In this document: in pieces, positions 4,558 to 59,063 of the stretch
How positions within the stretch are numbered: position 1 is the stretch's first letter
How the letters are laid out: each line of letters begins with the position of its first letter
From: a virus
Reading direction: 5' to 3' (one strand)
DNA: 64,000 nucleotides
Virus record (IMG/VR): IMGVR_UViG_3300029787_005452
Coordinates: 64,001 to 128,000 of that record
Made by a program: the position numbers and the translations under genes
Notes under the pieces: model-generated
What the model was told of the DNA's origin: nothing
The model's database searches: none
Seen by the model: the letters and a program-made list of their open reading frames with translations, nothing else

Positions 4558-5643
4558 TCATCTATATCTTTTTACGATCTGCTCGAAACTTTCTTCGTTT
4601 GAATCTAATTTAAATTCTTTTTGATATATCTTCAAATCTCTAGCAAATTTTTTCGTCGTTTTTGGTTGTTTAGTTTGCGATCTTACCACTACAGTACCAG
4701 TTTTTCCATCTTTACCAGTTACTTTATGCAGACCACCAGCAGGACCGACAACTATTATACCAGTTTTAAATTTATCTGCTTCTTTATTTAATTTTATTAA
4801 TAAATCTTTAATTGGAATTCCTTCTTGTTTTGACATATTTTTTAAGTCTTGTTTTAAATCTTCATCCGCAACTTTTTTTCTAGTAGCTATTTTAGGTAAA
4901 TAATCTATAAATGATGCTTTATCCCCGTCAGATGCTTTACCATTTTTATTTATAACATCTTTAATACCAGCTAATTCTTTTTTATCATGCTGGGTTGTAC
5001 TAGTAATAGTTAAAGCTAAGGCTTTTAAAACATCTTGGGACAATTCATCACCAAGCATAAATTTTATAAAATTATCTTTTTGACCCTTTTGTCCTAATAA
5101 TGCTTTTTCAGTTTTTGGAGCTTTTTGTTTAATAAGATCGTCTATATCAGTAATAGCTTTATTTCTTATTTTTTCTTCAGCAGCTTTATCAATAGTACCC
5201 TTTTCAATATTAGCTTCTATTTGGTTATAATAATCAATATCTGAAGCTGATACATCTCTTTCTTTACCTTGTTTATATGCATCCCAAACTCTTTTATATC
5301 TAGCATCATTTTCATATCTTTGTTTTCTTACTGGATCTGTAGGTGTATCACCTTTAACACCATACTTTAAATCTTTTTCTGCTTGTTGAGCTTTTAGTTC
5401 TTCTTGTCTTGCTAAAGCTTCTTGTTTTCTGGCTTCAGCACTTCTCATTCTATAACCTCTCGTACCTGGAATAGCTGCAGCAGCTCTACTTAAAAAACCA
5501 CCAACATTAGCTCCCGGTGCTCGAGGCCCTCTTACTTCATTTAAAACTTTTTGAAAATTAGTTTTTTTAAATCTTTCTAATTTAAGAGATCTTTCAGGTA
5601 AAAATTCTTTTTCAACTTTTTCAAATAATTCTTTATCGGTCAT
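4558..5643 (-). CDS. Lys-rich hypothetical protein, putative late/internal head protein
   Basis: 361 aa ORF; TAAATA-N5-ATG; N-terminus MTDKELFEKVEKE. Confidence 0.7.
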   Translation of the reverse strand: MTDKELFEKVEKEFLPERSLKLERFKKTNFQKVLNEVRGPRAPGANVGGFLSRAAAAIPGTRGYRMRSAEARKQEALARQEELKAQQAEKDLKYGVKGDTPTDPVRKQRYENDARYKRVWDAYKQGKERDVSASDIDYYNQIEANIEKGTIDKAAEEKIRNKAITDIDDLIKQKAPKTEKALLGQKGQKDNFIKFMLGDELSQDVLKALALTITSTTQHDKKELAGIKDVINKNGKASDGDKASFIDYLPKIATRKKVADEDLKQDLKNMSKQEGIPIKDLLIKLNKEADKFKTGIIVVGPAGGLHKVTGKDGKTGTVVVRSQTKQPKTTKKFARDLKIYQKEFKLDSNEESFEQIVKRYR

Positions 5644-5670
5644 TGAAATATTTAATCTATATGGTATAAT
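5643..5670 (+). promoter_or_regulatory. Early promoter TTGAAA-N16-TATAAT-N6-ATG of folE2, overlapping divergent late TAAATA (5649-5654, minus)
   Basis: Motifs read directly; extended -10 TGG TATAAT. Confidence 0.7.
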
Positions 5671-5676
5671 AGATAT

Positions 5677-6729
5677 ATGTCCGAAAAAAATAAAAGTTAT
5701 GAATGGTTAGGTGATGATGTAAGTGAAAGTGAACTTACCGGTGAAAAGGATATTATTGCAAAAGAACTAATGGGAGAAGAATATAGTAAAAGTTACTTTC
5801 CACCTATTAGAGTTTATGATAATAAAGTTAAAGCAGATAGAAAATATATTTCATCATTACCTGACTTACAAAACGGTCCATCAAGTTTAATTCAAGGTGC
5901 TGCGGTGCCTATTCAGCAAGTAGGTATACATAATTTTAAGTTACCTCTTACTTATAAAAAGAGAGACGGTAAGACTATTAATCTTGAAACTAGTGTAACT
6001 GGTAGTGTTAGTTTAGAAGCTCATAAGAAAGGTATTAATATGTCTCGTATTATGAGAAGTTTTTATGATCATAAGGATGATCTATTTAGTATTGATAATA
6101 TTAAAGATGTATTAGAATCATATAGAGAAAATCTTAAATGTTTTGATTCAAGAATTATGCTTAAGATTTCATACCCTATAAAGCAAACAAGTTTACGTAG
6201 TGGTTTAGAAGGTTATCAATATTACGATGTAGTGTTTGAAGGTGATATTACTAAGGATGGTGAGTTTAAGAAGTATATTCACTTTGATTTTGTATATTCA
6301 TCTGCATGCCCTTGTAGTTTTGAATTAAGTGAGCATGCTGAAAAGTATCGTAATCGTGCTACTGTACCTCATAGTCAACGTAGTGTTGCAAGAGTTAGTG
6401 TTAAGTTTGACGATATGTTATGGGTAGAAGATATACAAGAGTTATGTTTAGCTGCTTTGCAAACTGAGACCCAAGTTATGGTTAAGAGAGAAGATGAGCA
6501 AGCATTTGCTGAACTGAATGGTTCTAATCTAAAGTTTGTTGAAGATGCGGTACGTTTAATGTATGAAAAGCTTAGTAGTGAGTCTCGTATTAAAGACTTT
6601 AAGATTGTAGCATCTCATAATGAAAGTCTTCATAGCCATAACGCTATATCAGTTATAGTTAAAGGAGTTAAAGATGGCTTCTCTGCTGGAGTTGCTAGAG
6701 ATGTATTTGAAACTACAGGTTTAAGATAA
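5677..6729 (+). CDS. folE2: GTP cyclohydrolase IB
   Basis: PDLQN, IQQVGI, KGINMSRI, SACPCS, PHSQRS, VKREDEQ, FVEDAVR, ESLHSHNA. Confidence 0.95.
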   Translation: MSEKNKSYEWLGDDVSESELTGEKDIIAKELMGEEYSKSYFPPIRVYDNKVKADRKYISSLPDLQNGPSSLIQGAAVPIQQVGIHNFKLPLTYKKRDGKTINLETSVTGSVSLEAHKKGINMSRIMRSFYDHKDDLFSIDNIKDVLESYRENLKCFDSRIMLKISYPIKQTSLRSGLEGYQYYDVVFEGDITKDGEFKKYIHFDFVYSSACPCSFELSEHAEKYRNRATVPHSQRSVARVSVKFDDMLWVEDIQELCLAALQTETQVMVKREDEQAFAELNGSNLKFVEDAVRLMYEKLSSESRIKDFKIVASHNESLHSHNAISVIVKGVKDGFSAGVARDVFETTGLR

Positions 6730-7161
6730 TTAGTCTAAATTACCTTCTTTACTTACATCAATTAAACCACCTAATTGTTCAATAAATTCTTTACCGACTA
6801 GTATTTTATATTCATTGTCTTCTCTTGAACCTATAGAAAATTTAGTATTAGGGTAAGTCTTACCACCTATTTCAATATCAAATTCGACAACAGGTCGATT
6901 ATCAATAGTAGGCTCTCCATCTGGACCTGAACCTACATTGATATCAATATATTCTTTAATAGGTTTAGTAACAGTTTTATTATTAACTGTATCGAAAGTT
7001 ACCTGTTCTTTATTGTCTTGAATATTAATACCGTGCAAGACATTATAAGCCCCATTACCGCTATCAATTTTAGCTTCAATGGGACCTAATTCTTCAAATG
7101 TTATAGTTTCTATTAAACCGAGAGGTTTATTAGACTCAAAGAATTTTTTAAAGGTAATCAC
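6730..7161 (-). CDS. Retropepsin-like (RimK-associated 'ATP-dependent Zn protease' family) protease
   Basis: IEAKIDSGNGAYNVLH, RPVV, ILVGKEFI; GTG start 5 nt after TAAATA; N-terminus MITFKKFFES. Confidence 0.8.
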   Translation of the reverse strand: MITFKKFFESNKPLGLIETITFEELGPIEAKIDSGNGAYNVLHGINIQDNKEQVTFDTVNNKTVTKPIKEYIDINVGSGPDGEPTIDNRPVVEFDIEIGGKTYPNTKFSIGSREDNEYKILVGKEFIEQLGGLIDVSKEGNLD

Positions 7162-7169
7162 ATTATTAT

Positions 7170-7358
7170 TTATGCTTTACCAGCGTTCTTTACATCTTGT
7201 ATATCTTTTCTAATAGCTTTTGTTAATTTAGCTATTTCCAATAATGCTTTTCTTGCTCGAGTACCTGCAGCTGCGATACCCTTTTCATTAAATTTTTGAA
7301 TTTCTTCTTCAAAAGAATTAAACTGCTCAGTTATATTTTTAATATTTTCTTCATTCAT
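7170..7358 (-). CDS. Histone H1-like Hc1-family small protein
   Basis: KFNEKGIAAAGTRARKALLEIAKLTKAIRKDIQ matches the short Hc1-like family as I recall it. Confidence 0.75.
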   Translation of the reverse strand: MNEENIKNITEQFNSFEEEIQKFNEKGIAAAGTRARKALLEIAKLTKAIRKDIQDVKNAGKA

Positions 7359-7368
7359 AATAATCTAT

Positions 7369-8112
7369 TTAACCATTATAGTTAAAAATACCATACCATG
7401 AGTTTCTATAATCTCCTAAAAAACCATTTTTATACAAATAACATATATCGTGATCGGGATTATAACTTGAAAAAATATCAATTTCATAATCTCTGTATAA
7501 GTTGGTAATTTCATCTAAAATAGGTATAAATACTTTTCTATTAATATTTAAGTTTTCTTTACTTAAAGTATATGAATTTTCTGCTTGAAAATCTTTATAA
7601 AAAATACCATTTTTAATTTTTTCATTTATATATTTTTTATGTTTTACAGTTCCACAAAAAGCTAAATTTGTAACTATAGTTATTTTTGAAAATTTATTAG
7701 TTTTAATTTTTTCATTTATTTTCTTTTTATAATTAAAAAATAAATTGTTTTTTAATTTATTACTATACCAATTAACAATATGGTCTCCTAGTCTAAAATA
7801 AATTACTAATTCATTATCATCAGGTAATTGTAAACTATTTAAATTATTTTTAATATATTTATCAATACATAGTTTAAGTATAGGTCCTGAATAACCTGGT
7901 TCATATAATTTTTTCAATATATATGGATGTCTAAAATATATACCTAAAATAGTATTTTTATATTCCTCATTATATGCTAAATTTTTTCTATTTATTTTAG
8001 TATATGGATCGTAAGTTTTATTAAAATCACCTATCAATATATTAGCCACATTATAATCTAACATATCTTCAGTAATTTTAATTTTATTAAATAATTCTTC
8101 GCTTTTTTTCAT
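7369..8112 (-). CDS. Putative glycosyltransferase (GT11/fucosyltransferase-like motif)
   Basis: LVIYFRLGDH resembles HxRxGD; start corrected to ATG 8112 (ATGA overlap). Confidence 0.45.
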   Translation of the reverse strand: MKKSEELFNKIKITEDMLDYNVANILIGDFNKTYDPYTKINRKNLAYNEEYKNTILGIYFRHPYILKKLYEPGYSGPILKLCIDKYIKNNLNSLQLPDDNELVIYFRLGDHIVNWYSNKLKNNLFFNYKKKINEKIKTNKFSKITIVTNLAFCGTVKHKKYINEKIKNGIFYKDFQAENSYTLSKENLNINRKVFIPILDEITNLYRDYEIDIFSSYNPDHDICYLYKNGFLGDYRNSWYGIFNYNG

Positions 8113-8738
8113 ACTACCCAATTATTATCACATAAATGTATTCCGTAAATATTTTTATAAAAATTTTTATTTTTATTAGTTACTATTTTATTTTCAACCA
8201 ATAAAGTATCTTTATTTTCTTTATAATTATTTGTTAAAAAAGCTGGACCTGCTACTTCCATATTATCATATATATTATCATATTTTTTATTATCATAATT
8301 ATGCAATTTTTTAATTAATTTTTCTATAAATTTATTTTTAGGTGGAGAATATATTAACATAGGATCTATATATTTTTTATAATTTTTATTAGAAAAATAA
8401 TCATTTATTGCATTTTGAGAAAAAAGACAACATTTATTTTCAGACAATAAATTAGTTATATCTTTTTTAAAAATTATATCTAAATCCATATATAAACCAC
8501 CATACTCATACAAATAAAAATATCTAACTGCATCTACTTTATTAATATAATGATTATAACTTTCATAAATTTTATAAAAAGAAGGGTATTTACTTTTTAT
8601 AAAAAAATTATTTTCATCGTCAGTCCATAATTTATATTCCCAACCTTTAAAAAATTTTTTATTTTTTATTTTTAAAGTTAAATATTTCACTGGTAAAGTT
8701 TCAGTAGACCAACTTTGATGTATGGTTTTATATATCAT
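8109..8738 (-). CDS. GT32/OCH1-like DxD glycosyltransferase
   Basis: IHQSW, KLWTD, KVDAVRYFYLYEYGGLYMDLD, AGPAFLT. Confidence 0.88.
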   Translation of the reverse strand: MIYKTIHQSWSTETLPVKYLTLKIKNKKFFKGWEYKLWTDDENNFFIKSKYPSFYKIYESYNHYINKVDAVRYFYLYEYGGLYMDLDIIFKKDITNLLSENKCCLFSQNAINDYFSNKNYKKYIDPMLIYSPPKNKFIEKLIKKLHNYDNKKYDNIYDNMEVAGPAFLTNNYKENKDTLLVENKIVTNKNKNFYKNIYGIHLCDNNWVV

Positions 8739-9264
8739 TTATATCAATCCTTTCTGAACCATAAAAATTTTTAATACCTTTATTACTTAATATTTCTCTA
8801 TATAAAGGAGTTTCATAATTATAAGGAAAACAAAAACTATCAGGAATAAAATTTAAATTTTTTAAAAAATTATTATTCATTAACCTATTATCCTCTATAA
8901 TACATTCAACACAATCAGCAGTTTTTATTTTATGAAAATGACTATGACATCCAATATAACAATTTTTATAATTTAAAATATTTTTTATTTGAGACCATTT
9001 CATATAATTAGTAAAATTATTTTTAAAAGCTTTTTTATGAGCATTATAACATGTTATAAAGGTATCATTTTGTATTTTATCTTCTTCACAAACTATACCA
9101 CTACTAATAAAAAAATATTTTTCAGTTTTAATTTTTAATATATCTTCCAAAAAAAGATATTGAGTATATAACCCATCATCAAATGTTAAAATATAATCTT
9201 CTAATGGTAAATTTAAAAACGATTCTTTAAATTCATGAATCATTAAAATTTTTTTACTACTCAT
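8728..9264 (-). CDS. Polysaccharide deacetylase-family protein
   Basis: LTFDDGL, IGCHSHFH, FCFPYN. Confidence 0.85.
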   Translation of the reverse strand: MSSKKILMIHEFKESFLNLPLEDYILTFDDGLYTQYLFLEDILKIKTEKYFFISSGIVCEEDKIQNDTFITCYNAHKKAFKNNFTNYMKWSQIKNILNYKNCYIGCHSHFHKIKTADCVECIIEDNRLMNNNFLKNLNFIPDSFCFPYNYETPLYREILSNKGIKNFYGSERIDINDI

Positions 9265-9911
9265 ACTCTATTAAAAATACAAATAAAGGGTTCAGCTTGT
9301 CTATAACCTGAAATACTTCCGTAATATAAATCTCTATATTTAATATATTCAATACTAAGAGGATCAGGAGACTGTTTCAATTCAGTTGAATATCTATTAA
9401 TACATTTATATTTTACATTTATATTTTTTTCAATATTTACATATGTATTATAATCTATACCTTGAAAATTCCATTCACCGCTACCGGGTATAGAAAATTC
9501 ATATAACGTTGTAACAGGGCTATTATGTCTTGGTCTGCATGCAACTCTCACAGATTTAGATACTATTTGATGATCTATATGTATATCATTACTATAATTT
9601 GTATAAACTATATTCGGTTGTACCTGATTTATTATAGATGATATATAACTATTAATAGATAAATTAGAATGTTTATCTAGACTTACATCATCATATACAT
9701 GTTGAATTAATTTGGTAATACCTAAACTTTTAATATTTTCGTTAAGAGCATTTTTACGTAAATTTTCTACATTTAAATTACTACCTGGTCTATTACCTCT
9801 ACATAATACACATAATGTTATATTATTATCTTTAGATAATTTTGATATTGTACCACCCATACCAAACTCTGCATCGTCTGGATGGGCTGCGATTATTAAA
9901 ATTTTTTTCAT
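9261..9911 (-). CDS. PIG-L/LmbE-family deacetylase
   Basis: IIAAHPDDAEFGMGGTI, DIHIDHQ. Confidence 0.9.
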   Translation of the reverse strand: MKKILIIAAHPDDAEFGMGGTISKLSKDNNITLCVLCRGNRPGSNLNVENLRKNALNENIKSLGITKLIQHVYDDVSLDKHSNLSINSYISSIINQVQPNIVYTNYSNDIHIDHQIVSKSVRVACRPRHNSPVTTLYEFSIPGSGEWNFQGIDYNTYVNIEKNINVKYKCINRYSTELKQSPDPLSIEYIKYRDLYYGSISGYRQAEPFICIFNRV

Positions 9912-10495
9912 GTATATAACTTTTTAATATTAGTGATTGTTTCACACTTTAAATTATTATAATTATAAATTATATTTTGACTATTTACAACGTCTAAAGT
10001 TTGATTTATAAAACTATTTAAAGTTATAAATTTAATTTTTTTATCTAAATCTTTATCTGGAATATCATTTAATCTTATTTTTTTCATTAAACCTTTATTC
10101 CTGGTTTTATCATACACTCTAGGTATTCTCAATATTACCCAATTATCATAATTATTTTTTACATATTCCTCTATTAAAAATTTACTAGTGCAATATATGT
10201 TTTCAGTAGGAGTTTCAACACCTAATGTACTAGCAAATATAAATTTAGAATTATTTTTTTTAGCTAAATTTAATACATTTATAGTTCCATTAATAATAGT
10301 TTTTATAGTTTTAGTTTCATCTATAAAATCATAATCATCACTAGGACCAGCAAAATGAAAAACATTATCAATTTTTGAAGGTAAATAAAAATTATCAATT
10401 AAAATATCCCCATAATCGACATTCCAACCATTTATTTCCTTTTTAAGATTACTACCTAAAAATCCTTTTTCAGCCCCTGTAAATACATTTACCAT
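9908..10495 (-). CDS. NAD-dependent epimerase/dehydratase (short)
   Basis: TGAEKGFLGS, FHFAG, FASTLG, YCTSK, LRIPRVY. Confidence 0.8.
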   Translation of the reverse strand: MVNVFTGAEKGFLGSNLKKEINGWNVDYGDILIDNFYLPSKIDNVFHFAGPSDDYDFIDETKTIKTIINGTINVLNLAKKNNSKFIFASTLGVETPTENIYCTSKFLIEEYVKNNYDNWVILRIPRVYDKTRNKGLMKKIRLNDIPDKDLDKKIKFITLNSFINQTLDVVNSQNIIYNYNNLKCETITNIKKLYT

Positions 10496-10965: not shown

Positions 10966-10970
10966 TTTAA

Positions 10971-20602: not shown

Positions 20603-20607
20603 GTAAT

Positions 20608-20620
20608 TATTTATTAAATA
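20608..20620. promoter_or_regulatory. Back-to-back late promoters (TAAATA minus 20608-13; plus 20615-20), each 5 nt before an ATG
   Basis: Only 23 nt separate divergent ATGs at 20602 and 20626. Confidence 0.7.
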
Positions 20621-20625
20621 TTAAT

Positions 20626-21213: not shown

Positions 21214-23207
21214 ACTAATTTATTATCAAATATACGTTTAACTTCTTCGTCCATCGAACCATATAGATCTTGTATAAGATCTTTTCTTTCTTGTTCATCT
21301 AAACTTTTGTATAATTCTCTTATTTGAGATGCACTTCTAATATCTTTACCAAGAATACTAAAATCCATAGTAGGTAAAGTTGTTATATAACCATGTTTAC
21401 TACCGCTAGTTATTTTTTTAGACTTATCATATGGTTGAAAATAACTTGGCGTACCATCTTTTTTTAAACCGAATTTAAAGCGAGGTTTATCACCTTCCAT
21501 ATCTTTTTCAGAAACTGCAAATATAACTTTAGTTTTATCTAAATCATATCTTTCAGTAATCTCATTAGCTAAATATGGATTTTTTGTCATTTCTACAAAA
21601 CTAGGATCAATACCAGCACTTTGAATCATTTTTTTCTTTTCTTCAAATTCAAATGGGGAATTATCGTCATTAGTTTTACCAGATGTAGAAATAAATATAT
21701 CAGCTGTTGGAAATTGTTGTTTTAATTTATTGTAAACCGATGCATGTCCTTTATGAAATGGGTGAAATCTACCTGGGTATATAACTACCGTTTTTGTTAA
21801 ATCTTCTGCCTCTTCAAATTCATTTAACATTTCATACATTTCATTAAAAGCTCCAATTTTTTTACTTCCTGTTGGGTGGGTTTGTAATCTTGTACCTTCA
21901 CCTTTATTAAACACTGGTGGGTTATTAATATATGATTCTTGATTCTCAGGTGTTGAGGGTTTACCAGTTCCAAAATTAGCGCGACTAAATTCTTCTCTAT
22001 CAACTAATTTAGTAATTTCTGCCCCTGCTGCTGTAACTTTAGATAATGCAAAACCTTCAGGAGCAGTTGTTTGCCAATTGTTAGAGCTTTCTTCTAGATA
22101 TGTACCTAATAGATCATTTTTTGTTATTTCATTAAAAATTTTAATTAAATTATTTTTTAAATTAGCTATAATTTTAGTAATTTCAAAAGCATTTTTTATA
22201 GAAGGTTTAAGCTTTTGTAAAGCTTTTAAAGTTACTTTCATTTGCTCAGTTTTTTTAGCTTTACCTTTTTCACTTTTCAGCTTTTCTAACTCTTTTGTAA
22301 AACGATTTGAAATATAATTAACATATTCTTCGGTAGACATCGATGTATCTTGCAAAAATCTCCCAGATCTTATTTCAGAGTTTATATAAGATTTTAAAGT
22401 ACTAGTGTAATCATCTAACGCACTAAAATCGACTTTATCAGCTAACTTAAGTACTTGCTTCTTTTTAACCTTAACATCTTTTAAAAGTAATTTACTAAAG
22501 GATGATTTACTATTTTTAGGCTTATTAGCTAATACATTAAAAACAAATACTGTATTTGATGAGGTAAACTCATCGGGGGAAGAAGTGTATTTTTTTACTT
22601 TTAATATACCGTTACGTACCATATATTCAATATGAACTGCAACTCCTATTTTTGATTTAGCTATTTGATCACCATAAGGGCTATTTTCGGTAACTGCATA
22701 CTTAATAGTATTAGGGGTAAAAGTTAAAAATTTATTTTCATTTTTTACACCATCGATAGTTTCTGGAGTTTCAAAAGTTTTCATTTGCGGATCAAACATA
22801 TAATCCATTTGATAAATACCTTTAAGATTTAAAGATGGTAAATAACGTAAAGCTAATTTTAATTTATCTGCTAAACCACCAGTACCGTGATTTGTGGCAA
22901 TATCCTCCTCAGTATAATTTATTTTAGGGTTTTTAGCAAAAGCTGATTTACTTGCTACAAAAAATTTATTATTAGTATCTATACCCGCAACAATAGCAGG
23001 TGCCCCATCAAACTTTGTAGATATTTTATAATCAGATTCATCTACAAAATACGATATAGAAGATTCTATTTGGTTAATAGCTTCTATAACACCTTGCTTA
23101 CCTTTATTAAGTATATTTTCTTCTAAATGATCAATATGCTTTACTGCCCCATCAATTGCATCAAAGAATTCTAATAATACTTTATGGTGTTGTTTAAAGT
23201 TTATCAT
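21210..23207 (-). CDS. Fusion: ligase-like nucleotidyltransferase (DUF6267-like) + HIGH-family nucleotidyltransferase
   Basis: STKFDGAPAI, FFVASKS, PEGFAL, KLVDREEFSRANF; C-terminal IYPGRFHPFHKGH...IRSASQIR. Confidence 0.7.
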   Translation of the reverse strand: MINFKQHHKVLLEFFDAIDGAVKHIDHLEENILNKGKQGVIEAINQIESSISYFVDESDYKISTKFDGAPAIVAGIDTNNKFFVASKSAFAKNPKINYTEEDIATNHGTGGLADKLKLALRYLPSLNLKGIYQMDYMFDPQMKTFETPETIDGVKNENKFLTFTPNTIKYAVTENSPYGDQIAKSKIGVAVHIEYMVRNGILKVKKYTSSPDEFTSSNTVFVFNVLANKPKNSKSSFSKLLLKDVKVKKKQVLKLADKVDFSALDDYTSTLKSYINSEIRSGRFLQDTSMSTEEYVNYISNRFTKELEKLKSEKGKAKKTEQMKVTLKALQKLKPSIKNAFEITKIIANLKNNLIKIFNEITKNDLLGTYLEESSNNWQTTAPEGFALSKVTAAGAEITKLVDREEFSRANFGTGKPSTPENQESYINNPPVFNKGEGTRLQTHPTGSKKIGAFNEMYEMLNEFEEAEDLTKTVVIYPGRFHPFHKGHASVYNKLKQQFPTADIFISTSGKTNDDNSPFEFEEKKKMIQSAGIDPSFVEMTKNPYLANEITERYDLDKTKVIFAVSEKDMEGDKPRFKFGLKKDGTPSYFQPYDKSKKITSGSKHGYITTLPTMDFSILGKDIRSASQIRELYKSLDEQERKDLIQDLYGSMDEEVKRIFDNKLV

Positions 23208-24609: not shown

Positions 24610-24626
24610 TTTATATATTTAAGAGA

Positions 24627-39675: not shown

Positions 39676-40902
39676 TTAATACCCGTGTCTATAATTTCTT
39701 TCGTGGGTATGAGCATTTTGCATTCTTTGTCTGTACTGATTAAGCAGGTAATTATTTATTTCTTGTTGAGACATTGCAACTTGCTCTTCTTCTTCTGATT
39801 CTGATTTTTTTCTAAGCTTACCTGTAACTGGGCATCTTTCTGCATCTTCAGCAGGTTCGTCTTCATCCTCATAATGATCAGCAACTGCTCTTGCATGAGC
39901 TTGACCAGCTCTTTCTTGCTCTTTCTTCATAGCGTTATCAATAGCCTCTTTTCTTGCTTTTCCATATTCTTTAATTTCACCATCATCATCTAAATCTTTA
40001 TCTAAAGGATGAACTTGTTTTGGATCATTTTCCTCATCACTCATTGGGCAGTCTTCAGCATCTTCATCATCATCATCTCCGAAAGCTGCTTTAGCACGAG
40101 CATGTTCATATTCAGAAACTTTACCATCTTTATCAAGATCAGCTTTCTTATAATCTATTTCATCTTCAGGAGCTACACCAAACTGATCTCTTTGACTCAT
40201 ATGCATAACAGCGTTTATTGCATTTGACATACCATCTTCCTCACCTTCAGGAAAATCAGCAACTAATTTTTCTCTATCACCCATTTCAATTTCACCACCA
40301 AATTTATCAACTTTTTCCGTTTCACTAGGTTTGACAATAACAACCGATACTACATCATCTTGGGATATATCGTCTAAATTAATTTTAGTACCTTTAAAAG
40401 TATTAAGTGTAACTCTATACTTTAAACCATCACTCACGACTGTATAAAGATCATTATCACCGACACCGCCCTCAGATTTTAATGTTGTATCATCACCTAA
40501 ATTTAATTGTAACGTCTCAAAACCAGTATCACCTTTCTTGAGACCTTCTTTAGCAGCCCCTCTTTCTCTTGTTGTAATTTTTACATCTGATCTACCTGCT
40601 AAAGGTTTAGAAACTTGTGAGACTACATTTATTGCATTTTGAATATCATCATTTGATAAATTTTCTAAGTCTAATTCAGGGTTTTCTTTTTGTAAAAATC
40701 TAATTACTTTAGTTGCAAAATATCTAGGTGTCATTGTACCTTTTAAATCCCGGATATCTTCCATTCCCATTAGTTTAGCTCTAATAGGGTCCACAATTTT
40801 TTTACCCCTAGCTTCTTCAACGATATCAAAATCTTCATTATCCATGTAACTTGATGTATTTTCAGTTATTATTTTTCTATTTGACCAGTTATTTAAACTC
40901 AT
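39676..40902 (-). CDS. Acidic late hypothetical protein with two DxDxDG motifs
   Basis: DLDKDGKVSEYE and DLDDDGEIKEYG; TAAATA-N5-ATG. Confidence 0.7.
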   Translation of the reverse strand: MSLNNWSNRKIITENTSSYMDNEDFDIVEEARGKKIVDPIRAKLMGMEDIRDLKGTMTPRYFATKVIRFLQKENPELDLENLSNDDIQNAINVVSQVSKPLAGRSDVKITTRERGAAKEGLKKGDTGFETLQLNLGDDTTLKSEGGVGDNDLYTVVSDGLKYRVTLNTFKGTKINLDDISQDDVVSVVIVKPSETEKVDKFGGEIEMGDREKLVADFPEGEEDGMSNAINAVMHMSQRDQFGVAPEDEIDYKKADLDKDGKVSEYEHARAKAAFGDDDDEDAEDCPMSDEENDPKQVHPLDKDLDDDGEIKEYGKARKEAIDNAMKKEQERAGQAHARAVADHYEDEDEPAEDAERCPVTGKLRKKSESEEEEQVAMSQQEINNYLLNQYRQRMQNAHTHERNYRHGY

Positions 40903-48785: not shown

Positions 48786-48789
48786 TATT

Positions 48790-49122: not shown

Positions 49123-49128
49123 ATATAT

Positions 49129-52490: not shown

Positions 52491-53346
52491 TTTAGTACAT
52501 CGAGTGTATTGGGTTGCAAATAACATTAAAAATGTTTCTGAAAACTACCATGTTTATATGTTTCTCAATAGTGTTAAGAGTTATGTGGAAATGTACCAAC
52601 CAGATAAAGTCATATGCGTGTGGGATGAAAAACCTGATTATAGACCCAATAAACGTAAGGAACTTTTAGAAGAATATAAAGGAAATCGTGACCCTGAGTA
52701 TGGTAAAGAAGTACATGGTAAGAATGAAATAATAAAAGAGATGCTTAATACAATAGGTATACCATCAATATTCCCTAGATCATATGAAGCTGATGATGTT
52801 ATCAAGATTGTTAACGATGCATATGATAAAATGAGCACAACTAAATTTTATTTAACTAAAAAATTATTCAGACATGTCATTGTTACTGTAGATAAAGACT
52901 TATGCCAGTTAATTTCTAGTAAAGTTTCGGTATACGACCCTATAAGAAAGGTGGAAATTAATAAAGAAAACTTTAATGAAATATTAAAATATAATAAAAA
53001 AGATTTTATTAAAGTAAAAGCGTTAACTGGTGATAAAAGTGATAATATTCCCGGCTTAAAAGGTTTTGGTAAAGTAAAAATAGATAAGTTCCTTAACGGT
53101 GAAGTAGTTTTAACAGAAGAAGAAAACGTTATATATAATAGAAATTTAGATTTAGTCACGTTAACTAATGATAAAGATGAAAAGGAGTATGTTATGAATC
53201 AATTATCAGAAATTAAAAATGAAACTGACTATGAACAGTTTAAAAAATTAAGTAAAGATTATAATTTAAGTCAAATTGTTAAAAATGATACTAAATGGTA
53301 TACTACATTTTTCCAGAAAAATAGATTATTAGAGTTACTATCTTAA
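52462..53346 (+). CDS. rnh: T4 RNase H-like 5'-3' exonuclease
   Basis: IDGNN, EADD, TVDKDL, GDKSDNIPG. Confidence 0.92.
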   Translation: MKLLTIDGNNLVHRVYWVANNIKNVSENYHVYMFLNSVKSYVEMYQPDKVICVWDEKPDYRPNKRKELLEEYKGNRDPEYGKEVHGKNEIIKEMLNTIGIPSIFPRSYEADDVIKIVNDAYDKMSTTKFYLTKKLFRHVIVTVDKDLCQLISSKVSVYDPIRKVEINKENFNEILKYNKKDFIKVKALTGDKSDNIPGLKGFGKVKIDKFLNGEVVLTEEENVIYNRNLDLVTLTNDKDEKEYVMNQLSEIKNETDYEQFKKLSKDYNLSQIVKNDTKWYTTFFQKNRLLELLS

Positions 53347-53354
53347 ATATTAAT

Positions 53355-53600
53355 ATGGAAGATCAATTTATTAATCCTCAGCAAATACGTTCCCCATATA
53401 CCGGGGAAACAGTTAGACCAGTTTTTAATACCTACGTTAATAATGGTAAAACGTATGAACAAGCAGTTATGTCTGACCCAGTTACAGGTCATATAATTAA
53501 AAAAGGTTTAGTATCTATTAAAGATTCTAAAACTGGTGAAGTAATACAAGATTATAATTCAGCACTATCTCAAAGTAATACTACTCAAAGTAGAGGTTAG
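53355..53600 (+). CDS. Hypothetical protein
   Basis: TAAATA-N5-ATG. Confidence 0.65.
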   Translation: MEDQFINPQQIRSPYTGETVRPVFNTYVNNGKTYEQAVMSDPVTGHIIKKGLVSIKDSKTGEVIQDYNSALSQSNTTQSRG

Positions 53601-53602
53601 GC

Positions 53603-53630
53603 TTGAAATATAGTATATTGCATTTATAAT
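53603..53630 (+). promoter_or_regulatory. Early promoter TTGAAA-N16-TATAAT-N6-GTG of primase
   Basis: Read directly. Confidence 0.7.
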
Positions 53631-53636
53631 TATAAT

Positions 53637-54671
53637 GTGATAATTATACCAGAGCAGTATGTTGTAAACGTTTTGTATGAGAATGTCTATAAAATCTCAT
53701 ATAATAAATATACAAAAACGTATAATGGTTGCTGCCCTATCTGTAAAGAAGGTGGTTCATGGGGTAAGAAAAAGCGATTTTATTATATACCGAATAAAGA
53801 GTTGGCTTATTGTCATAACTGCGGTTATAGTAAAAAGGCTCTTACCTTTATAACTGAGGTAACTAATAAACCGTTACATACTATTGTTAATGATATAAAA
53901 GGTTTTGATGTTGAAATCTTACCTACCGAAGAACCAAAGGAAGTTAAAAAAGTTATAGATAAAAGTTTACCTGAAGATTGTATTAATTTATCTGATATTA
54001 GTCAAATAGAATACTATAAAGATAATACTACAGTAAAACTAGCTTTACAGTTAATTAAAGATAGAAAACTAGATAAAGGTGTTAATAAACCTAAAACGTT
54101 TTATTTATCTTTAAAAGACCCGGTGCATAAGAATAGATTAATATTACCATTCTACGATGAAAATGATGATATTATATTTTATCAATCAAGAGGGTTAACT
54201 AAAAAGGATTTGTTTGAAAGACCAAAATATCTTAGTAAGGTAGGTGCAGAAAGAAGCTTATACGGTATGCAAAATATAAATTCAGATTTAGATAACGTGT
54301 TTATATTTGAAGGACCTATTGACAGTTACTTTGTTGAAAATGGTTTAGCTACTTGTGGTATTACTGAAAAGAGTAATAAGATGTTTACAACATTACAATT
54401 ACAACAGATCAATAAACTAAACTTATATGAAAAGGTTTATGTATTAGATAACCAGTACTGTGATAAAGCTGCTTTAAGTAAAAGTATTATATTAGCTGAT
54501 AATAATGAAAAGGTTTTTATATGGCCTAAAGAGTTAAAGCGTTTTAAAGACTTTAACGATATATGCGTAGCTGGTAATAAAGACAAAATAAAACCTGAAT
54601 TTATATTAAAAAATACTCATTCAGGTCTTAAAGCTAAATTATTATTAACTGATATTAAAAATAATAGTTAA
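53637..54671 (+). CDS. gp61: DNA primase
   Basis: CPIC...CHNC Zn finger, RLILPF, KY, FEGPIDS, LDN, KDFND. Confidence 0.93.
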   Translation: MIIIPEQYVVNVLYENVYKISYNKYTKTYNGCCPICKEGGSWGKKKRFYYIPNKELAYCHNCGYSKKALTFITEVTNKPLHTIVNDIKGFDVEILPTEEPKEVKKVIDKSLPEDCINLSDISQIEYYKDNTTVKLALQLIKDRKLDKGVNKPKTFYLSLKDPVHKNRLILPFYDENDDIIFYQSRGLTKKDLFERPKYLSKVGAERSLYGMQNINSDLDNVFIFEGPIDSYFVENGLATCGITEKSNKMFTTLQLQQINKLNLYEKVYVLDNQYCDKAALSKSIILADNNEKVFIWPKELKRFKDFNDICVAGNKDKIKPEFILKNTHSGLKAKLLLTDIKNNS

Positions 54672-54946
54672 GATTTTGTTACACCACCGGCAAATCCTTG
54701 AGCTCTTGTACCAGTTGTCATAAAATCAGCATACTGATTTAAAGTTTTCAATTCATCTGCAATTCTTTCTAAAGATGCTTCTATTTTAGATAAATCGTTT
54801 TCTTCATTTTCTCCGTCTAAAGGTTCCATTTCACCTAATTGATCATCGGCCGCGGCTTCTTCAGGAGCAAACTCATCATTATCATCTTGTTCAACTTCAT
54901 CATTATTAATGTATGCTTCAAAAATTAAATCTTGGTCTGTTTTCAT
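54668..54946 (-). CDS. Acidic late hypothetical protein
   Basis: MKTDQDLIFEAY; TAAATA-N5-ATG. Confidence 0.7.
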   Translation of the reverse strand: MKTDQDLIFEAYINNDEVEQDDNDEFAPEEAAADDQLGEMEPLDGENEENDLSKIEASLERIADELKTLNQYADFMTTGTRAQGFAGGVTKS

Positions 54947-54954
54947 ATTATTAT

Positions 54955-55371
54955 TTAGTTAAATTTGTATTTAGGGTCATTTGCACCTGCTAAATAACCT
55001 TTAAGTATTTCACTTAATGAAGAAACTTCCATTGCTACTCTTGCAATCTTTTTAGTTTCAGCATTTGAAATACTATCAAAGATTGTATCTGGTTCAGCAG
55101 AGTTTAAAGAAGTTTGAATACTATCAGTAGTTCCATTTAAGTAATCACCAAATTCATCCATTTTATCAATCCAGCTACTTAACTCTTCAAACATTTGCCT
55201 TGATTGAGAACTAACTGGATCTTCACCACCTGCTGGTGCATCAACATCAAAATCTTCTGGAGATGTCTCAGGCTCTAAAGTAGAAGCCATTGCTTCTTGG
55301 TCAGTTAACTCGGTATTTTCATCATCTTGTTCAGATAGAAATTTTTTAAATCGTTTTTGGTATAAGCTCAT
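54955..55371 (-). CDS. Acidic late hypothetical protein
   Basis: MSLYQKRFKKFLSE; TATAAATA-N5-ATG. Confidence 0.7.
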   Translation of the reverse strand: MSLYQKRFKKFLSEQDDENTELTDQEAMASTLEPETSPEDFDVDAPAGGEDPVSSQSRQMFEELSSWIDKMDEFGDYLNGTTDSIQTSLNSAEPDTIFDSISNAETKKIARVAMEVSSLSEILKGYLAGANDPKYKFN

Positions 55372-55376
55372 ACTAT

Positions 55377-55388
55377 TATTTATAAATA
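55377..55388. promoter_or_regulatory. Palindromic bidirectional late promoter TATTTATAAATA
   Basis: TATAAATA on both strands, each exactly 5 nt from a divergent ATG (55371, 55394). Confidence 0.8.
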
Positions 55389-55393
55389 TTTAT

Positions 55394-55774
55394 ATGCAAT
55401 CTACCACAAAATTTGAAGACTTCGTAAAAGTACTTGAAGAAGACTATGGACAAGAAATGATGCCTGATGTTGTTAGAGACCAATCTGGCCAAAAAACAGA
55501 GTATCCATCTGAACCATCAAGTGTTAGAGACATATTTAATAAACAGAATAGAACAGATATAGCTCCTGAAAATATACCATACCCGTTAAATGAATTTGAC
55601 GACGTTGTTGCTAATGCATTTGTAAATTTACAAAATTTAGAAGAGTTATTAAAGCATGCAGGAACTAACACAGTTATTAAAGATAAAAAACCATTAGATA
55701 GTATCGGTAAAGAAATTGTTGAATTAAAAGGTAAGCTAGTTGATATTAGTAGGAAAGTTAGTAAAATAAAATAA
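55394..55774 (+). CDS. Late hypothetical protein
   Basis: MQSTTKFEDFVKVLEE. Confidence 0.7.
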   Translation: MQSTTKFEDFVKVLEEDYGQEMMPDVVRDQSGQKTEYPSEPSSVRDIFNKQNRTDIAPENIPYPLNEFDDVVANAFVNLQNLEELLKHAGTNTVIKDKKPLDSIGKEIVELKGKLVDISRKVSKIK

Positions 55775-56160
55775 TGAAGAAAGTTTTATTATCCTTATCA
55801 TTAACTTTATTAGTTAGTGGTTTATTTGGTATAATTTTTAGAGATTGGTTAGTGTTTGGTCTTGCAACTATATTACAAATTTTATTTTTTTATTTTTTTA
55901 ATACAGTTTATGAAAATTTTCTCATAAAAAGAGCAGTCGAACTAAATGGAGAAATAGAAAAAGAAATTTTAAAAAATACTGTACAGGTTACATGCCCGTG
56001 CGGAGCAAAACAAGATGTTGTACTTTCAATGACTGAAGATACGATATATCGTTGTAAAGAGTGTAAGAATGAAATTAGAGCCACGACCAATATTGGTACC
56101 GCATTAGTTACCACGCCTATAAGTACAGCAGCAACTGCTCCAACTATATCTAAAGTATAA
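55774..56160 (+). CDS. Membrane protein with C-terminal zinc ribbon
   Basis: Two hydrophobic N-terminal helices; CPCG...CKEC. Confidence 0.65.
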   Translation: MKKVLLSLSLTLLVSGLFGIIFRDWLVFGLATILQILFFYFFNTVYENFLIKRAVELNGEIEKEILKNTVQVTCPCGAKQDVVLSMTEDTIYRCKECKNEIRATTNIGTALVTTPISTAATAPTISKV

Positions 56161-56555
56161 TGGACAAATTAAAAGATATTACTAAAGAGGTAGATAATAG
56201 CCTAAAAGAAGATAATACAATTAAAGAAATTAGTATAGAAGACGTAATAAAGTATATAGTTAATAATGATACCGATACAAAAGCTCGGGTTACAGCTGGT
56301 AGAGTTTTTCAGACCAATAAAAACCCTAATTTTATAGAAACTTTATTTAAATTAATAGAAGAAGAAATAGGAAAGATGGAATCTAAAAATAATAGAGATT
56401 CTGATAATTCATTTTTTAGTTTAAATAAAAAAATTCTTTCTAATAATTTATTCATTATAAAGGAAATTATTAAACAATATAATTTAGATGAAAAAAGAAT
56501 ATCAGATTTTGTTTTAGGAACTCTGATACAATCTATATATGATTCAAAAAGATAG
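56160..56555 (+). CDS. Hypothetical protein
   Basis: Coupled ORF. Confidence 0.6.
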   Translation: MDKLKDITKEVDNSLKEDNTIKEISIEDVIKYIVNNDTDTKARVTAGRVFQTNKNPNFIETLFKLIEEEIGKMESKNNRDSDNSFFSLNKKILSNNLFIIKEIIKQYNLDEKRISDFVLGTLIQSIYDSKR

Positions 56556-56805
56556 AGATATTATTCAAGAGTATGGTATAGATTTTGTTGCAAGATTTGC
56601 ATGCTTATATGAAGGAGTTAACGTAGCTTGTAGTAGAGCTGAAAGAATAGGTTATGATACTGAGCATAGTACTGCATGGGTTAAACCTACAGCTTTTCAA
56701 AAATATGTCGATGAACGATATTTAGATATGAAGCACGATATACAGCTTTATTTAAAAGGAATAGACACTGATGAAATTTATCCCTGGGACGAAATTTATA
56801 AATAA
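56539..56805 (+). CDS. Hypothetical protein
   Basis: Coupled ORF. Confidence 0.6.
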   Translation: MIQKDRDIIQEYGIDFVARFACLYEGVNVACSRAERIGYDTEHSTAWVKPTAFQKYVDERYLDMKHDIQLYLKGIDTDEIYPWDEIYK

Positions 56806-56980
56806 TACAATGACTAACACCAAACTCTTTAAAAGAGGTGTATTATATACGTTGAACAATATTAAACCATTAGAGGGTAATATTGTGTATACATTTAAAG
56901 TTGGTAATAAACTAAAAGAAGTGACGTTTAAGAACGTAGAACAAGCAGATCAATGGTTAGAAAAAATTATAGTAAATTAA
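56771..56980 (+). CDS. Hypothetical protein
   Basis: Coupled ORF. Confidence 0.55.
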   Translation: MKFIPGTKFINNTMTNTKLFKRGVLYTLNNIKPLEGNIVYTFKVGNKLKEVTFKNVEQADQWLEKIIVN

Positions 56981-57765
56981 TAATAATCCCCATATACATC
57001 AGTATCGTTTACTGACATATCAAAAACATCTTTCTTACTAATAGCGTCAACGTCATATTGGTTATAGTTATCTTTTTTACCTTGACTTTCTTCATTGGCT
57101 CCTCCAGATAATCTACCTGCAAACGATTCTTCATAAATTTGACTATTGCCTGATATACCACTAGTTAAATTATTGAAAGGTATATTAGGTTCAAAGCTAT
57201 AATCTAATCGTTTTGCTTTTATTAAAAATACATAATGACCTTGTAAAGGGTTAATTTGAGCTATATCTTGATCTAATTTTTCAGTTATTTCAAAATATTT
57301 CGGTTGTCTATCACTAGGTCTATCATCTCCATACTCACTTAACTGGAATACATCACCGGCCTTAGGTTCTATAACATTAAATTGCTTTTCATATACTGAA
57401 CTTAAAGTAAAGAAGTTATCATAGAATGAAGATATATGAATATAAGCAGTTACCTCATCATCACTTTCAAAACCAAATTTAGAAAGCTGTATTGCATTTT
57501 CATTTAAAGTTACTGCTAAAATAATTTCTCTTGGTTGAGCAAATATTTTAGTGGTTTCTTCTCCGTAAAAATTATCAGCACTTAATAAGTTGTATGTATT
57601 AACAAAGTAATTTACTTTAGTTCCGTATAAATTTATTTGCTCTCTCCAATAATTAGAAAAAAGAGTACGTTCATTCGATTGTATAGACTTATCTGTGAAT
57701 CTAAAACAAGTTTCATCAGTCTGTACAATTCCTGGAAAATCACAATTATAATTAGGTTGACTCAT
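56977..57765 (-). CDS. gp14: Neck/head-closure protein gp14-like
   Basis: EQINLYGTKVNY, NFYGEE, LSKFG...DE, EPKAGD. Confidence 0.75.
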   Translation of the reverse strand: MSQPNYNCDFPGIVQTDETCFRFTDKSIQSNERTLFSNYWREQINLYGTKVNYFVNTYNLLSADNFYGEETTKIFAQPREIILAVTLNENAIQLSKFGFESDDEVTAYIHISSFYDNFFTLSSVYEKQFNVIEPKAGDVFQLSEYGDDRPSDRQPKYFEITEKLDQDIAQINPLQGHYVFLIKAKRLDYSFEPNIPFNNLTSGISGNSQIYEESFAGRLSGGANEESQGKKDNYNQYDVDAISKKDVFDMSVNDTDVYGDYY

Positions 57766-58103
57766 TTTTCAATAACGAATTTTTTTAATTTTTCATCAAA
57801 ATATAACTTAATACCAGTACTACCCAATTTTTTTACTTCACCTTTGAAAGGTATTACATTATATTCTTTTCTTATATATTCAAGATCAGGGGTACCGCAA
57901 ACTTTTTTACCTGAGCCTTGTCTTAAAAGTTCAATATTTGAATTTTTAGTTGGGTCTGTTTTAACATAATCAGGTACTATGTTTTGATGAATTCTCATAT
58001 AATGGGGATCACCAGCACCTGGTATAGCCCTTCTATGTCTATGATTTATTCCAGGTTTAGCCCCCTGATATTTATTTTCATAAAATTTGCAAAATCTTAA
58101 CAT
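57762..58103 (-). CDS. Late hypothetical protein
   Basis: MLRFCKFYE; TAAATA-N5-ATG. Confidence 0.7.
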   Translation of the reverse strand: MLRFCKFYENKYQGAKPGINHRHRRAIPGAGDPHYMRIHQNIVPDYVKTDPTKNSNIELLRQGSGKKVCGTPDLEYIRKEYNVIPFKGEVKKLGSTGIKLYFDEKLKKFVIEK

Positions 58104-58117
58104 AATTATATTTAAGC

Positions 58118-58149
58118 AAAAAAAAGCGCAACCAAATTAATGGTTACGC
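58118..58149 (-). terminator. Rho-independent terminator
   Basis: Minus strand GCGTAACCA-TTAATT-TGGTTGCGC-T8, 24 nt after stop at 58173. Confidence 0.85.
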
Positions 58150-58172
58150 AATTTAAATTGAAATCTAATCTT

Positions 58173-59063
58173 TTATTGTATGAAATCTGCCCCAGCTTGT
58201 AATGCTACTTTATTTGCTTTACTTTGGAGCTTGCCTTTAGCATCAGCTAATGGTTTTGGTTCTGCTTCAACATACTTCTTAGTTGAATCGGATGCTTTAC
58301 CACTTTTTGGTTTAACCTTACCAACTTTATTATTACCACCGTGTGTTAAACCTGAATCCTTTTGATTAACCAATGCGTGACCCATTTCTTCAGCATCTAC
58401 TGCTTCTTTATGTGTATCGTCTTCGTCTTCGTCTTCTCCATCTTCTTCAGCTTCTTCAAAGCTTTCAAATCCATTTTCTTCCATTTCAGCAGAATAATCT
58501 TCTTCACCATCTGCATCATCATCATCACCATCTTCTTCTTCGCCCATTGCTGCTTGCAGCATGTCGCAAAGTGACTTGGCCATATCACGATCTAACGTAA
58601 TTGTAACTTCGTCTGATTCGGTGTCTGCTACTTCGGTATCAATACCAAGTGCATCCAATTCTTGTGTTTCTTGATCTGAGTGCATTTCTTCACCCATAAC
58701 GTTTTCAAAGAGTTTGTCAAAAGTTGATTTCATATTATTATTTATACTCTCTTTTACCTTTTTCTCTAGTTTTTTATTTTTTTTGTTATATTCTTGTGAA
58801 GAATATATCTCACTATTATATAATTCATCTTCTACACCGTTATGTTTAGGGTCTATAACGTTGCTATATATTTCCCCCTTATCAGCATTTTCTGGACCAG
58901 AACTATTATCATTAGCAAAGCCATGTTTAACGTCGTTAGGTTTCACCGGCGGTTTACCTACTTTTGTTCCCATTTTAGCTGCTTTTACACCTGGTGCGTT
59001 TTCAGATAGAATGCTATTATTATATGTATTCCATATTTCGGTTAGAGTATTTGATCTAGACAT
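58173..59063 (-). CDS. Highly acidic late protein, prohead core/scaffold-like
   Basis: Start corrected to ATG 59063 (TATAAATA-N5); D/E-rich, many xxE sites; followed by terminator. Confidence 0.6.
   Translation of the reverse strand: MSRSNTLTEIWNTYNNSILSENAPGVKAAKMGTKVGKPPVKPNDVKHGFANDNSSGPENADKGEIYSNVIDPKHNGVEDELYNSEIYSSQEYNKKNKKLEKKVKESINNNMKSTFDKLFENVMGEEMHSDQETQELDALGIDTEVADTESDEVTITLDRDMAKSLCDMLQAAMGEEEDGDDDDADGEEDYSAEMEENGFESFEEAEEDGEDEDEDDTHKEAVDAEEMGHALVNQKDSGLTHGGNNKVGKVKPKSGKASDSTKKYVEAEPKPLADAKGKLQSKANKVALQAGADFIQ

Follow-up and report, generated by a model that had tools for sequence, protein, structure and literature searches.

Late genes with shared N-terminal leaders

The window analyzed here is a 64,000-nucleotide stretch (bases 64001-128000) of the 185,197-bp IMG/VR virus record IMGVR_UViG_3300029787_005452 (G+C ~28%). 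It belongs to a T4-like myovirus distant from every isolate, with a DNA polymerase no more than 32% identical (about 31%) to the polymerases of pelagiphage, cyanophage and Sinorhizobium T4-like phages. Spread along the window are genes, numbered C1 to C19 below, whose products begin with short leaders closely resembling the capsid-targeting and cleavage signals of T4 internal proteins. The original prediction had proposed such leaders for about 17 late proteins, and all 16 of the N-termini that it quoted (16/16; C1 to C16) were located at the genes named for them, including the partial "..YNNSILSE", which lies within the protein encoded at 58173-59063 (-) as MSRSNTLTEIWNTYNNSILSE/NAPG (here and below, a slash marks the predicted cut after Glu). 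With the promoter consensus as the basis for assignment, all 16 genes belong to late transcription units; TAAATA-N5 directly precedes the start codon in 11 (6730-7161 having a GTG start), and the other 5 are operon-internal. The bodies behind the leaders are indeed unrelated by all-against-all BLASTP, the sole exception being weak paralogy between 39676-40902 and 58173-59063 (24% identity over 219 aa, E 1e-4).

The leaders are of two classes. One, written M-K/I-T/N-F-K-x-F/Y-F/Y-E with longer variants, resembles those of the T4 internal proteins, and the other, subtype 2 (D/K-x-x-L-I-F/A-E-x-Y), resembles that of T4 Alt. For the former, we used a strict pattern derived from T4 mutational data (PMC9026906), M-x-x-[FYW]-x-x-hyd-hyd-(x)-E, with an aromatic residue at 4, hydrophobic residues at 7-8 and Glu at 9-10. 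The targeting residues at 4 and 7 and the processing residues P3 and P1 are strictly present in C1, C2, C10 and the genome open reading frames beginning MINFSTYFE and MQTFNEYVIEE, and are present with longer spacing in C3-C6, C8, C17 and C18; only P3 and P1 are present in C9, C11, C12 and C16. All listed leaders have a hydrophobic residue (L, I, V, F, Y or M) at P3. Orthologues were sought in 63 related contigs fetched via the DUF6267 protein described below and in G001, an independent complete relative of 184,542 bp with terminal repeats and 35% G+C.

C1 (6730-7161, -) encodes 143 amino acids (aa) from a GTG 5 nucleotides (nt) after TAAATA, with the leader MITFKKFFE/SNK and a retropepsin-like body that has a conserved D-S-G motif and matches Pfam PF05618 at 23 bits, below cut-off; its orthologues keep a leader of the form M-x-x-F-K-x-[FY]-[FY]-(x)-E in 26 of 27 cases. 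A dense run of leader-bearing genes then begins with C3 (19528-19803, -; 91 aa; MKFDDLFEFYVNE/ASDG) and C17 (19803-19970, -; 55 aa; MEEKITFDQLVE/SLW), both with a very basic mature part (isoelectric point, pI, 10.6); orthologues of the latter start MNKFDTILE/SLW or MEKEMNQFDTILE/SLW. C2 (19955-20275, -; 106 aa) follows the strict pattern with MKTFKLYYE/NAER, its orthologues having MKTFK[ITL][FY][FY]E, and C4 (20282-20602, -; 106 aa) has its own late promoter and the leader MTFDKLYSSLME/AFDED; the mature parts of both are basic. The last 41 aa of C4 are seen again, with 56% identity, at the end of a G001 protein of 490 aa that also bears a leader (124321-125793, +), a shared tail that suggests domain shuffling among cargo genes.

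On the opposite strand, C14 (20626-21213, +; 195 aa), also with its own late promoter, has an acidic mature part and a subtype 2 leader with two candidate sites, MDNESNLIFE/QYKSVNE/MIGLGP; distant orthologues retain a hydrophobic-x-E/(M/L)-x-(L/I)-(G/S)-P site near residue 17-19. C5 (21210-23207, -; 665 aa; MINFKQHHKVLLE/FFD) comprises DUF6267, a disordered linker and a domain like nicotinamide mononucleotide or nicotinate mononucleotide (NMN/NaMN) adenylyltransferases, and a leader-like segment, IGAFNEMYEMLNE/FEE (21819-21857, -; residues 451-463), lies just N-terminal to that last domain. Next are C7 (23204-24286, -; 360 aa; MSWKPLDQVYLNE/SANKK), a moderately supported member whose positional orthologues start MSWKSLDQVYLQE/SAG, MQWSLEKIYE/S or MEYNLTKLYE/Q, and C6 (24283-24609, -; 108 aa; pI 4.2), which has its own late promoter and in which an acidic proline-rich stretch follows the leader MKKFLKAYNNILE/QDETE; the leader is kept in 24 of 25 orthologues and the linker is variable. 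C18 (24627-25508, -; 293 aa) reads MDMFNQLANSILKK...TIKE/DNE, and its orthologues have MD[KN]F[NT]QLANxxLxE/, the Glu at residue 14 being lost in the window copy.

The late gene C19 (26510-26776, -; 88 aa; MKKTTLFE/KAF...PPEEDE/NTVGGG) has a body 55% identical over 42 aa to residues 85-126 of the phage's own capsid protein, the copied region being the glycine-rich N-arm that follows directly on the probable site of the maturation cut. Relatives have kept this protein, distant orthologues having MSTFKDIFLKLIEE/DN and MDSTSKFEKAFINILEE/DT, and it may serve as a decoy or assembly accessory.

Farther along lie C13 (38300-39667, -), a 455-aa orphan with the subtype 2 leader MNKDTELIFE/NY, for which Pfam, PHROGs and the ESM Atlas returned nothing informative, and C11 (39676-40902, -; 408 aa, acidic; MSLNNWSNRKIITE/NTSS), a weak member whose sole features are a late promoter and a hydrophobic-x-E ending at residue 14. 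C15 (54668-54946, -; 92 aa, very acidic) bears the subtype 2 leader MKTDQDLIFE/AY, and C8 (54955-55371, -; 138 aa, acidic) has MSLYQKRFKKFLSE/QDDE, matched in its G001 orthologue (47% identity) by MSSFTKKFFTLLE/QDEQD. C9 (55394-55774, +; 126 aa; MQSTTKFEDFVKVLEE/DYG; late promoter) is a weak to moderate member with no orthologue in the fetched DNA. C10 (57762-58103, -; 113 aa, basic) follows the strict pattern with MLRFCKFYE/NKY and has its own late promoter. C12 (58173-59063, -; 296 aa, acidic; late promoter), whose leader is the one quoted in the first paragraph, is another weak to moderate member; near residue 115 it contains TFDKLFENVMGE/E, closely like the C4 leader, and its G001 orthologue has ...SVKVVEE/KTL at the start and IFDKLYENVMSD at the corresponding internal place; this segment may be a second internal junction. 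At the other end of the window, C16 (4558-5643, -), a 361-aa basic orphan with a late promoter, begins MTDKELFE/KVE, resembling T4 Alt MELITELFDE/; neither an orthologue in the fetched DNA nor a protein family was found for this weak member.

We regard 12 of the 16 originally listed genes (C1 to C8, C10 and C13 to C15) as well supported and 4 of 16 (C9, C11, C12 and C16) as weak. Members absent from that list number 3 in the window (C17, C18 and C19) and at least 7 elsewhere in the genome.

Motif enrichment and comparative evidence

Among 231 N-termini of the genome, 5 follow the strict pattern versus 0.35 expected in shuffles (P<0.0005), a ~14-fold enrichment, and the rate among non-gene ATG peptides is 0.22%. 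A looser pattern occurs in 14 N-termini versus 5.0+-2.1 expected. Divided by transcription unit, late genes show 4 strict matches versus 0.20 expected and 11 looser matches versus 3.15 expected (P about 0.0003), and in early units the excess is not significant (strict, 1 versus 0.12 expected; looser, 3 versus 1.55 expected). The same pre-set patterns replicate in G001, with 4 strict matches versus 0.47 expected and 19 looser matches versus 6.8 expected. The second leader subtype, also part of the original prediction, stands out: the hexapeptide [LIVM][IL][FA]E.Y is nearly exclusive to N-termini, 3 of its 5 occurrences in a whole-genome six-frame translation being the starts of C13, C14 and C15, and all 4 of its occurrences in G001 (4/4) being N-terminal. 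A cruder measure, [LIVFYMW]-x-E at residue 8-17, was found in 37% of late and 24% of other genes and was dropped as too unspecific.

Leaders are conserved among orthologues down to ~50% body identity, with variable linkers next to them. Some 20 protein clusters (at least 3 members each) are consistently leader-positive, although a few of them are false positives, such as a QueD-like cluster. In 29 C5 orthologues, M1, F4, K5, E13, F14 and F15 are invariant, and the codons for the leader vary synonymously (TTT/TTC, AAA/AAG, GAA/GAG); invariance of the residues despite such codon changes points to selection on the peptide and not on the RNA.

The leaders are also modular, being added to, lost from and swapped between bodies. 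Cyanophage DUF6267 homologues have no leader and start just past the leader position. The cytidylyltransferase-like gene likewise lacks one in P-HM2 and has MITFHVFITE/AYD in P-RSM6 (locus L070, 3665-4762, +; CPXG_00042), and where this domain is a separate gene in split relatives it carries its own leader in 14 of 14. Swaps are evident as well: the C3 body is 64% identical in G001, yet it is preceded by MKFDDLFEFYVNE/ here and by MITFAEFFTE/ there, and the C2 body type bears MKTFKTFYE/ or, in locus L018, the C4-type MKTFDKLYSSLME/. DUF6267 and the adenylyltransferase-like domain are fused in the window and adjacent separate genes in many relatives and cyanophages (loci L027, L046 and L051 compared). 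In the fusions a leader-like segment lies between the domains, the C5 segment ending /FEE here corresponding to KFNELYNKIISE/DEN in relatives, with KFKSLYDNIVNE/, KFNELYNKIISE/ and KFNDLYNKLIAE/ at the same place in other fused orthologues. Retention of such a segment inside the fusions points to an internal cleavage junction, i.e. a small polyprotein, and the C5 segment at 21819-21857 is probably one. Gene content is variable, with 6 members having no orthologue in the complete G001 genome.

Head genes and likeness to T4 leaders

A T4-type head module (prohead protease, scaffold homologue and major capsid protein) is encoded outside the window. The gp21-type prohead protease (genome 17943-18611) matches Peptidase_S77 (PF03420) at 113.7 bits and phrog_207 at E 7e-56; it shares 39% identity with T4 gp21, and both the ELNHP and the SSR motif are conserved. 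A scaffold homologue (genome 18761-19624) weakly matches phrog_237 (head scaffolding protein; E 4.6e-5) and is positioned between the protease and capsid protein genes, and the major capsid protein is 29% identical to T4 gp23. All three proteins retain the hydrophobic-x-Glu sites of their T4 counterparts: the protease starts MSLNLIVE/T (T4 gp21, MNEPQLLIE/T), the scaffold starts MDIKQILSE/A (T4 gp22, MLKEQLIAE/A), and in the capsid protein WCLNE/AGPN directly precedes the glycine-rich arm, the stretch aligned to where mature gp23 begins. The Peptidase_S77 protease, the scaffold homologue and these kept substrate sites together support reading the leaders as T4-type.

In T4, the internal proteins IPI, IPII and IPIII and Alt carry a capsid targeting sequence removed by gp21 (PMC9026906; PMC3012670; the targeting work of Repoila 1994 as cited in PMC12373910), for which the cleavage rule is L/I-x-E (PMC9026906). 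The internal proteins of T-even phages are diverse and have only the leader in common, and ip genes have been found through it (PMC3012670; PMC12373910). Read from NC_000866, the T4 leaders are MKTYQEFIAE/A for ipII and ipIII, MKTFKEFTSTTTPVSTITE/A for ipI and MELITELFDE/D for Alt, to which can be added MAKINELLRE/S of gp24 and the gp22 and gp21 starts given above; MKTFKEF... is also among the leaders resembled. The likeness to these that had been noted at the outset extends to nearly the same wording, with MKTFKLYYE/N, MITFKKFFE/S and MLRFCKFYE/N in the window and MKSFKQFILE/Q and MKTFKQFFE/K in relatives, and subtype 2 (MNKDTELIFE/N, MTDKELFE/K) recalls the T4 Alt propeptide. A two-box matrix trained on the marine leaders alone placed T4 ipIII 3rd, ipII 5th and gp22 7th of 1580 ATG peptides. 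Its scores are weak (at most 6.7 bits in T4), and ipI ranks 55th, gp24 110th and Alt 464th, so the matrix captures the IPII/III-like class only.

Contents of the putative cargo

By composition, one group of leader-bearing proteins has very basic mature parts with pI >10 (C2, C3, C4, C10, C17 and C19). Seven members (C1, C6, C8, C11, C12, C14 and C15) have pI 4.0-4.8, 18-28% Asp+Glu and low-complexity stretches, and a third group consists of larger proteins, enzymes included. A low-complexity acidic or basic stretch often directly follows the leader. For most orphan bodies, PHROGs, Pfam and the ESM Atlas yielded nothing usable, and family matches in the listed set are limited to C5 (DUF6267 and cytidylyltransferase-like) and the sub-threshold match of C1. 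The "apparent enzymes" of the original prediction are borne out, and more strongly than had been stated.

C5 matches DUF6267 at 268 bits in Pfam, plus a cytidylyltransferase-like domain. Its AlphaFold2 model is mediocre overall (predicted local distance difference test, pLDDT, 58), with a fairly confident core at 30-380, a disordered linker at 383-469 and residues 1-26 at pLDDT <50, modelled as helix (DSSP helix 4-20). The C-terminal domain is similar to NaMN/NMN adenylyltransferases (Foldseek NadD, E 9e-4; phmmer 2qjt, E 3e-4). A K-F-D-G motif resembling motif I of ligase-type nucleotidyltransferases is invariant in DUF6267. Fold comparison by Foldseek and VIA-align gave helical-bundle noise plus the REL1 RNA-editing ligase (Z 5.7, rank 45), and a profile search of PDB sequences gave no match; a ligase-like DUF6267 is thus a lead provided by the K-F-D-G motif and not a result.

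Outside the window, ~8 kb before it, three consecutive leader-bearing genes form a late operon (genome 55023-56192, -). The last of them (genome 55023-55643) encodes an Fe/Mn superoxide dismutase (SOD; Sod_Fe_C, 126 bits) in which the usual LPY start is preceded by a leader of about 13-16 aa, MNYDNLTDLLLEE/; the orthologue in G001 has a different one, MDFNERVSLLIE/. The two genes beside it encode small very basic proteins with the leaders MKFTTLVEKILLE/ and MINFSTYFE/.

Discussion

The sequences show the motif, how well it is conserved, how leaders are gained, lost and exchanged as modules, and that protease and scaffold genes are present. We consider it likely that about 20-25 proteins of this genome carry T4-type capsid-targeting and cleavage leaders. 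The predicted occurrence of such leaders on unrelated late proteins was compatible with every test run, and the prediction as a whole is supported in part; for packaging, cleavage and above all injection, it and our own reading both lean on T4. By that analogy, tagged proteins made late in infection would use the leader to attach to the scaffold core while the prohead assembles, with targeting by an aromatic residue at 3-4 and a hydrophobic residue about three positions on (PMC9026906). The gp21-type serine protease would then cut after the Glu of hydrophobic-x-Glu at residue 8-17 and free the mature protein inside the head. Core binding, cleavage after Glu, retention in the head and injection are all modelled on T4 here; mature proteins would remain with the packed DNA and probably exit with it at infection. 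The very basic small cargo would probably be DNA-bound, the very acidic cargo may consist of core parts or DNA mimics, and the enzyme cargo would include the retropepsin-like protein, SOD (outside the window) and the fusion of DUF6267 with the NMN-adenylyltransferase-like domain, the last probably cut at its internal junction.

Several observations weigh against so broad an assignment. The closest isolates are only ~31% identical in DNA polymerase. The looser pattern is common and matches the unpackaged T4 proteins lysozyme, Dda, gp62 and td, plus gp46 here, so that looser counts are upper bounds. The loose core [FYW]-x-x-hyd-hyd-x?-E has 146 six-frame matches, of which 5 are at starts versus ~4 expected. 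The original prediction implied a motif more frequent in late than in early genes, and this stands only in part: the excess is confined to late units, but a direct Fisher test of the looser pattern (10/132 late versus 3/71 early) is not significant (p=0.27). T4 gene 61.1 (NC_000866 18966-19130, -) begins MKTFKEFIKE, a near-perfect tag, yet its product is not known to be packaged. The T4-like cyanophage P-RSM6 has the same protease and no significant tag excess, so the presence of the protease alone does not predict tagged cargo and the expansion seen here is lineage-specific. Finally, C9, C11, C12 and C16 show only hydrophobic-x-E plus a late promoter, and the C7 pattern is partly weak.

Points such as these could mean that a good part of the list is coincidence, produced by ordinary N-terminal helices that fit a loose pattern in an A+T-rich genome. 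Lys, Asn, Ile, Phe, Tyr and Glu abound in its proteins, shuffling expects the looser pattern ~5 times per genome, and neither that pattern's matches in unpackaged T4 proteins, nor the crude hydrophobic-x-E frequencies in late and other genes, nor the loose core's want of position specificity speaks for a signal. Composition, however, cannot yield orthologue conservation, leaders added to enzymes, leader swaps or internal relics; the strict pattern is ~14-fold enriched with an excess in late units only that is replicated in G001, and subtype 2 is almost exclusively N-terminal. We therefore judge coincidence improbable for the set, and it can apply only to the four or five weak members. Still harder to sustain is the idea that the shared N-termini are an RNA-level translation signal for late messages starting ~5 nt before the ATG. 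It draws on late genes having TAAATA-N5-ATG and on the A-rich second codons (Lys) common among leaders, but conserved residues vary synonymously, the products of most late structural genes behind this same promoter start with MA or MP and have no leader, operon-internal genes without a promoter of their own bear leaders, and the motif is retained in fusion proteins, far from start codons. Synonymous variation and the leader-like segments inside fusions led us to reject this explanation, which we find barely credible.

If the leaders do act on the protein, the destination of their bearers may still differ from that of the T4 internal proteins. In T4, processing turns the core proteins gp22, gp67 and gp68 into fragments that mostly leave the head (PMC9026906), and many of the leader-bearing proteins, above all the very acidic ones (C6, C8, C11, C12, C14 and C15), could likewise be targeted to the prohead only to be degraded and expelled as core components. 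The low pI, high Asp+Glu and low-complexity stretches of the seven acidic members fit such a fate, and C19, as a copy of the capsid protein N-arm, suggests a role in assembly. Against it, SOD, the adenylyltransferase-like and retropepsin-like proteins and the small, very basic ones are more suggestive of cargo that is retained than of scaffold, and membership varies between genomes, unlike that of core assembly parts. On balance we think it unlikely as an account of so many members; some very acidic ones may nonetheless be prohead-core parts that are degraded and not injected. A different docking partner or site (a chaperone, the portal or neck, or another virion compartment), for all leaders or at least for subtype 2, strikes us as quite improbable. 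Two clearly distinct leader classes do coexist, but subtype 2 ends I-F/A-E, compatible with the gp21 rule L/I-x-E, resembles the propeptide of T4 Alt, which is a packaged protein, and occurs on late genes only. T4-type targeting and cleavage remains our preferred account of both classes.

The mechanism itself is already known from T4 and is not new. What is new is that the T4 wording is closely kept in a very distant lineage, that the set is so large and has a second leader class, that the putative cargo extends to enzymes, and that a fusion has a probable internal junction. The known mechanism is unchanged and its reach widened. As in the T4 internal protein and Alt system, leaders of ~9-13 residues have an aromatic residue at 4, hydrophobic residues at 7-8 and a hydrophobic-x-Glu end, the bodies are variable and unrelated, expression is late, protease and scaffold are homologous, and a second, Alt-like form exists. 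The MKTFK... wording is shared with the T4 internal proteins too, as in MKSFKQFILE of a relative and T4 MKTYQEFIAE. Unlike T4, with its three internal proteins and Alt, this phage has ~20-25 tagged genes per genome, the shortest leaders have 8 residues and the longest about 22, SOD, DUF6267, an adenylyltransferase-like enzyme and a retropepsin-like protein are among the putative cargo, and a leader-like junction lies inside at least one tagged fusion. Among the papers searched, the only one to bring up the capsid targeting sequence as well as cyanophages is a T4 review.

The ejection and inner-body proteins of the giant phages phiKZ, 201phi2-1 and SPN3US offer a second comparison: there, a diverged homologue of gp21 processes many head proteins, enzymes included, by cutting after Glu, and propeptides may hold several redundant sites (PMC9026906; PMC5694885). 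Their motif, however, is S/A-x-E and not hydrophobic-x-E, their propeptides are long with no common short N-terminal tag, whereas the leaders here are 8-22 aa, and the phage of the window has a true T4-type head module. We accordingly rejected a phiKZ-like inner-body class for these proteins, having looked for S/A-x-E sites and long propeptides.

If the tags work as in T4, a short sequence rule would pick out the head-carried, probably injected proteins of uncultured T4-like phages, a class otherwise invisible to homology searches that in T4 includes anti-restriction proteins, Ip1-3 blocking GmrSD restriction enzymes (PMC12373910). The address code is nearly unchanged between coliphage T4 and a lineage at ~31% DNA polymerase identity, and so may carry over from one T4-type head to another. 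Known enzymes (SOD and the adenylyltransferase-like protein of the nicotinamide adenine dinucleotide, NAD, pathway type) have apparently been recruited as cargo by gaining a leader of ~12 residues, and the fusions with an internal tag suggest delivery of cargo as a protease-cut polyprotein. One could go further and see in the T4 tag a general delivery code by which ~25 proteins, working enzymes among them, are shipped into the host with the DNA. This extension is possible but doubtful; if true, the cargo would include SOD and a two-enzyme polyprotein cut by the head protease at its internal tag, the phage would arrive pre-armed, e.g. against NAD+ depletion or oxidative stress, and which of the two tags a protein carries would determine its copy number or its place in the head.

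Some minor observations concern T4 itself and the promoters of the window phage. In the uvsW region of T4, an in-frame Met close to its 3' end (114210, +) yields MLLEFKQFLYE/AS. Late genes across the window (e.g. at 20603-20625, 24610-24626 and 55372-55393) have TAAATA only 5-6 nt 5' of the ATG, so that late messages must be nearly leaderless, and many early genes have TATAAT near the start codon, some with GGAAC ~10 nt further upstream.

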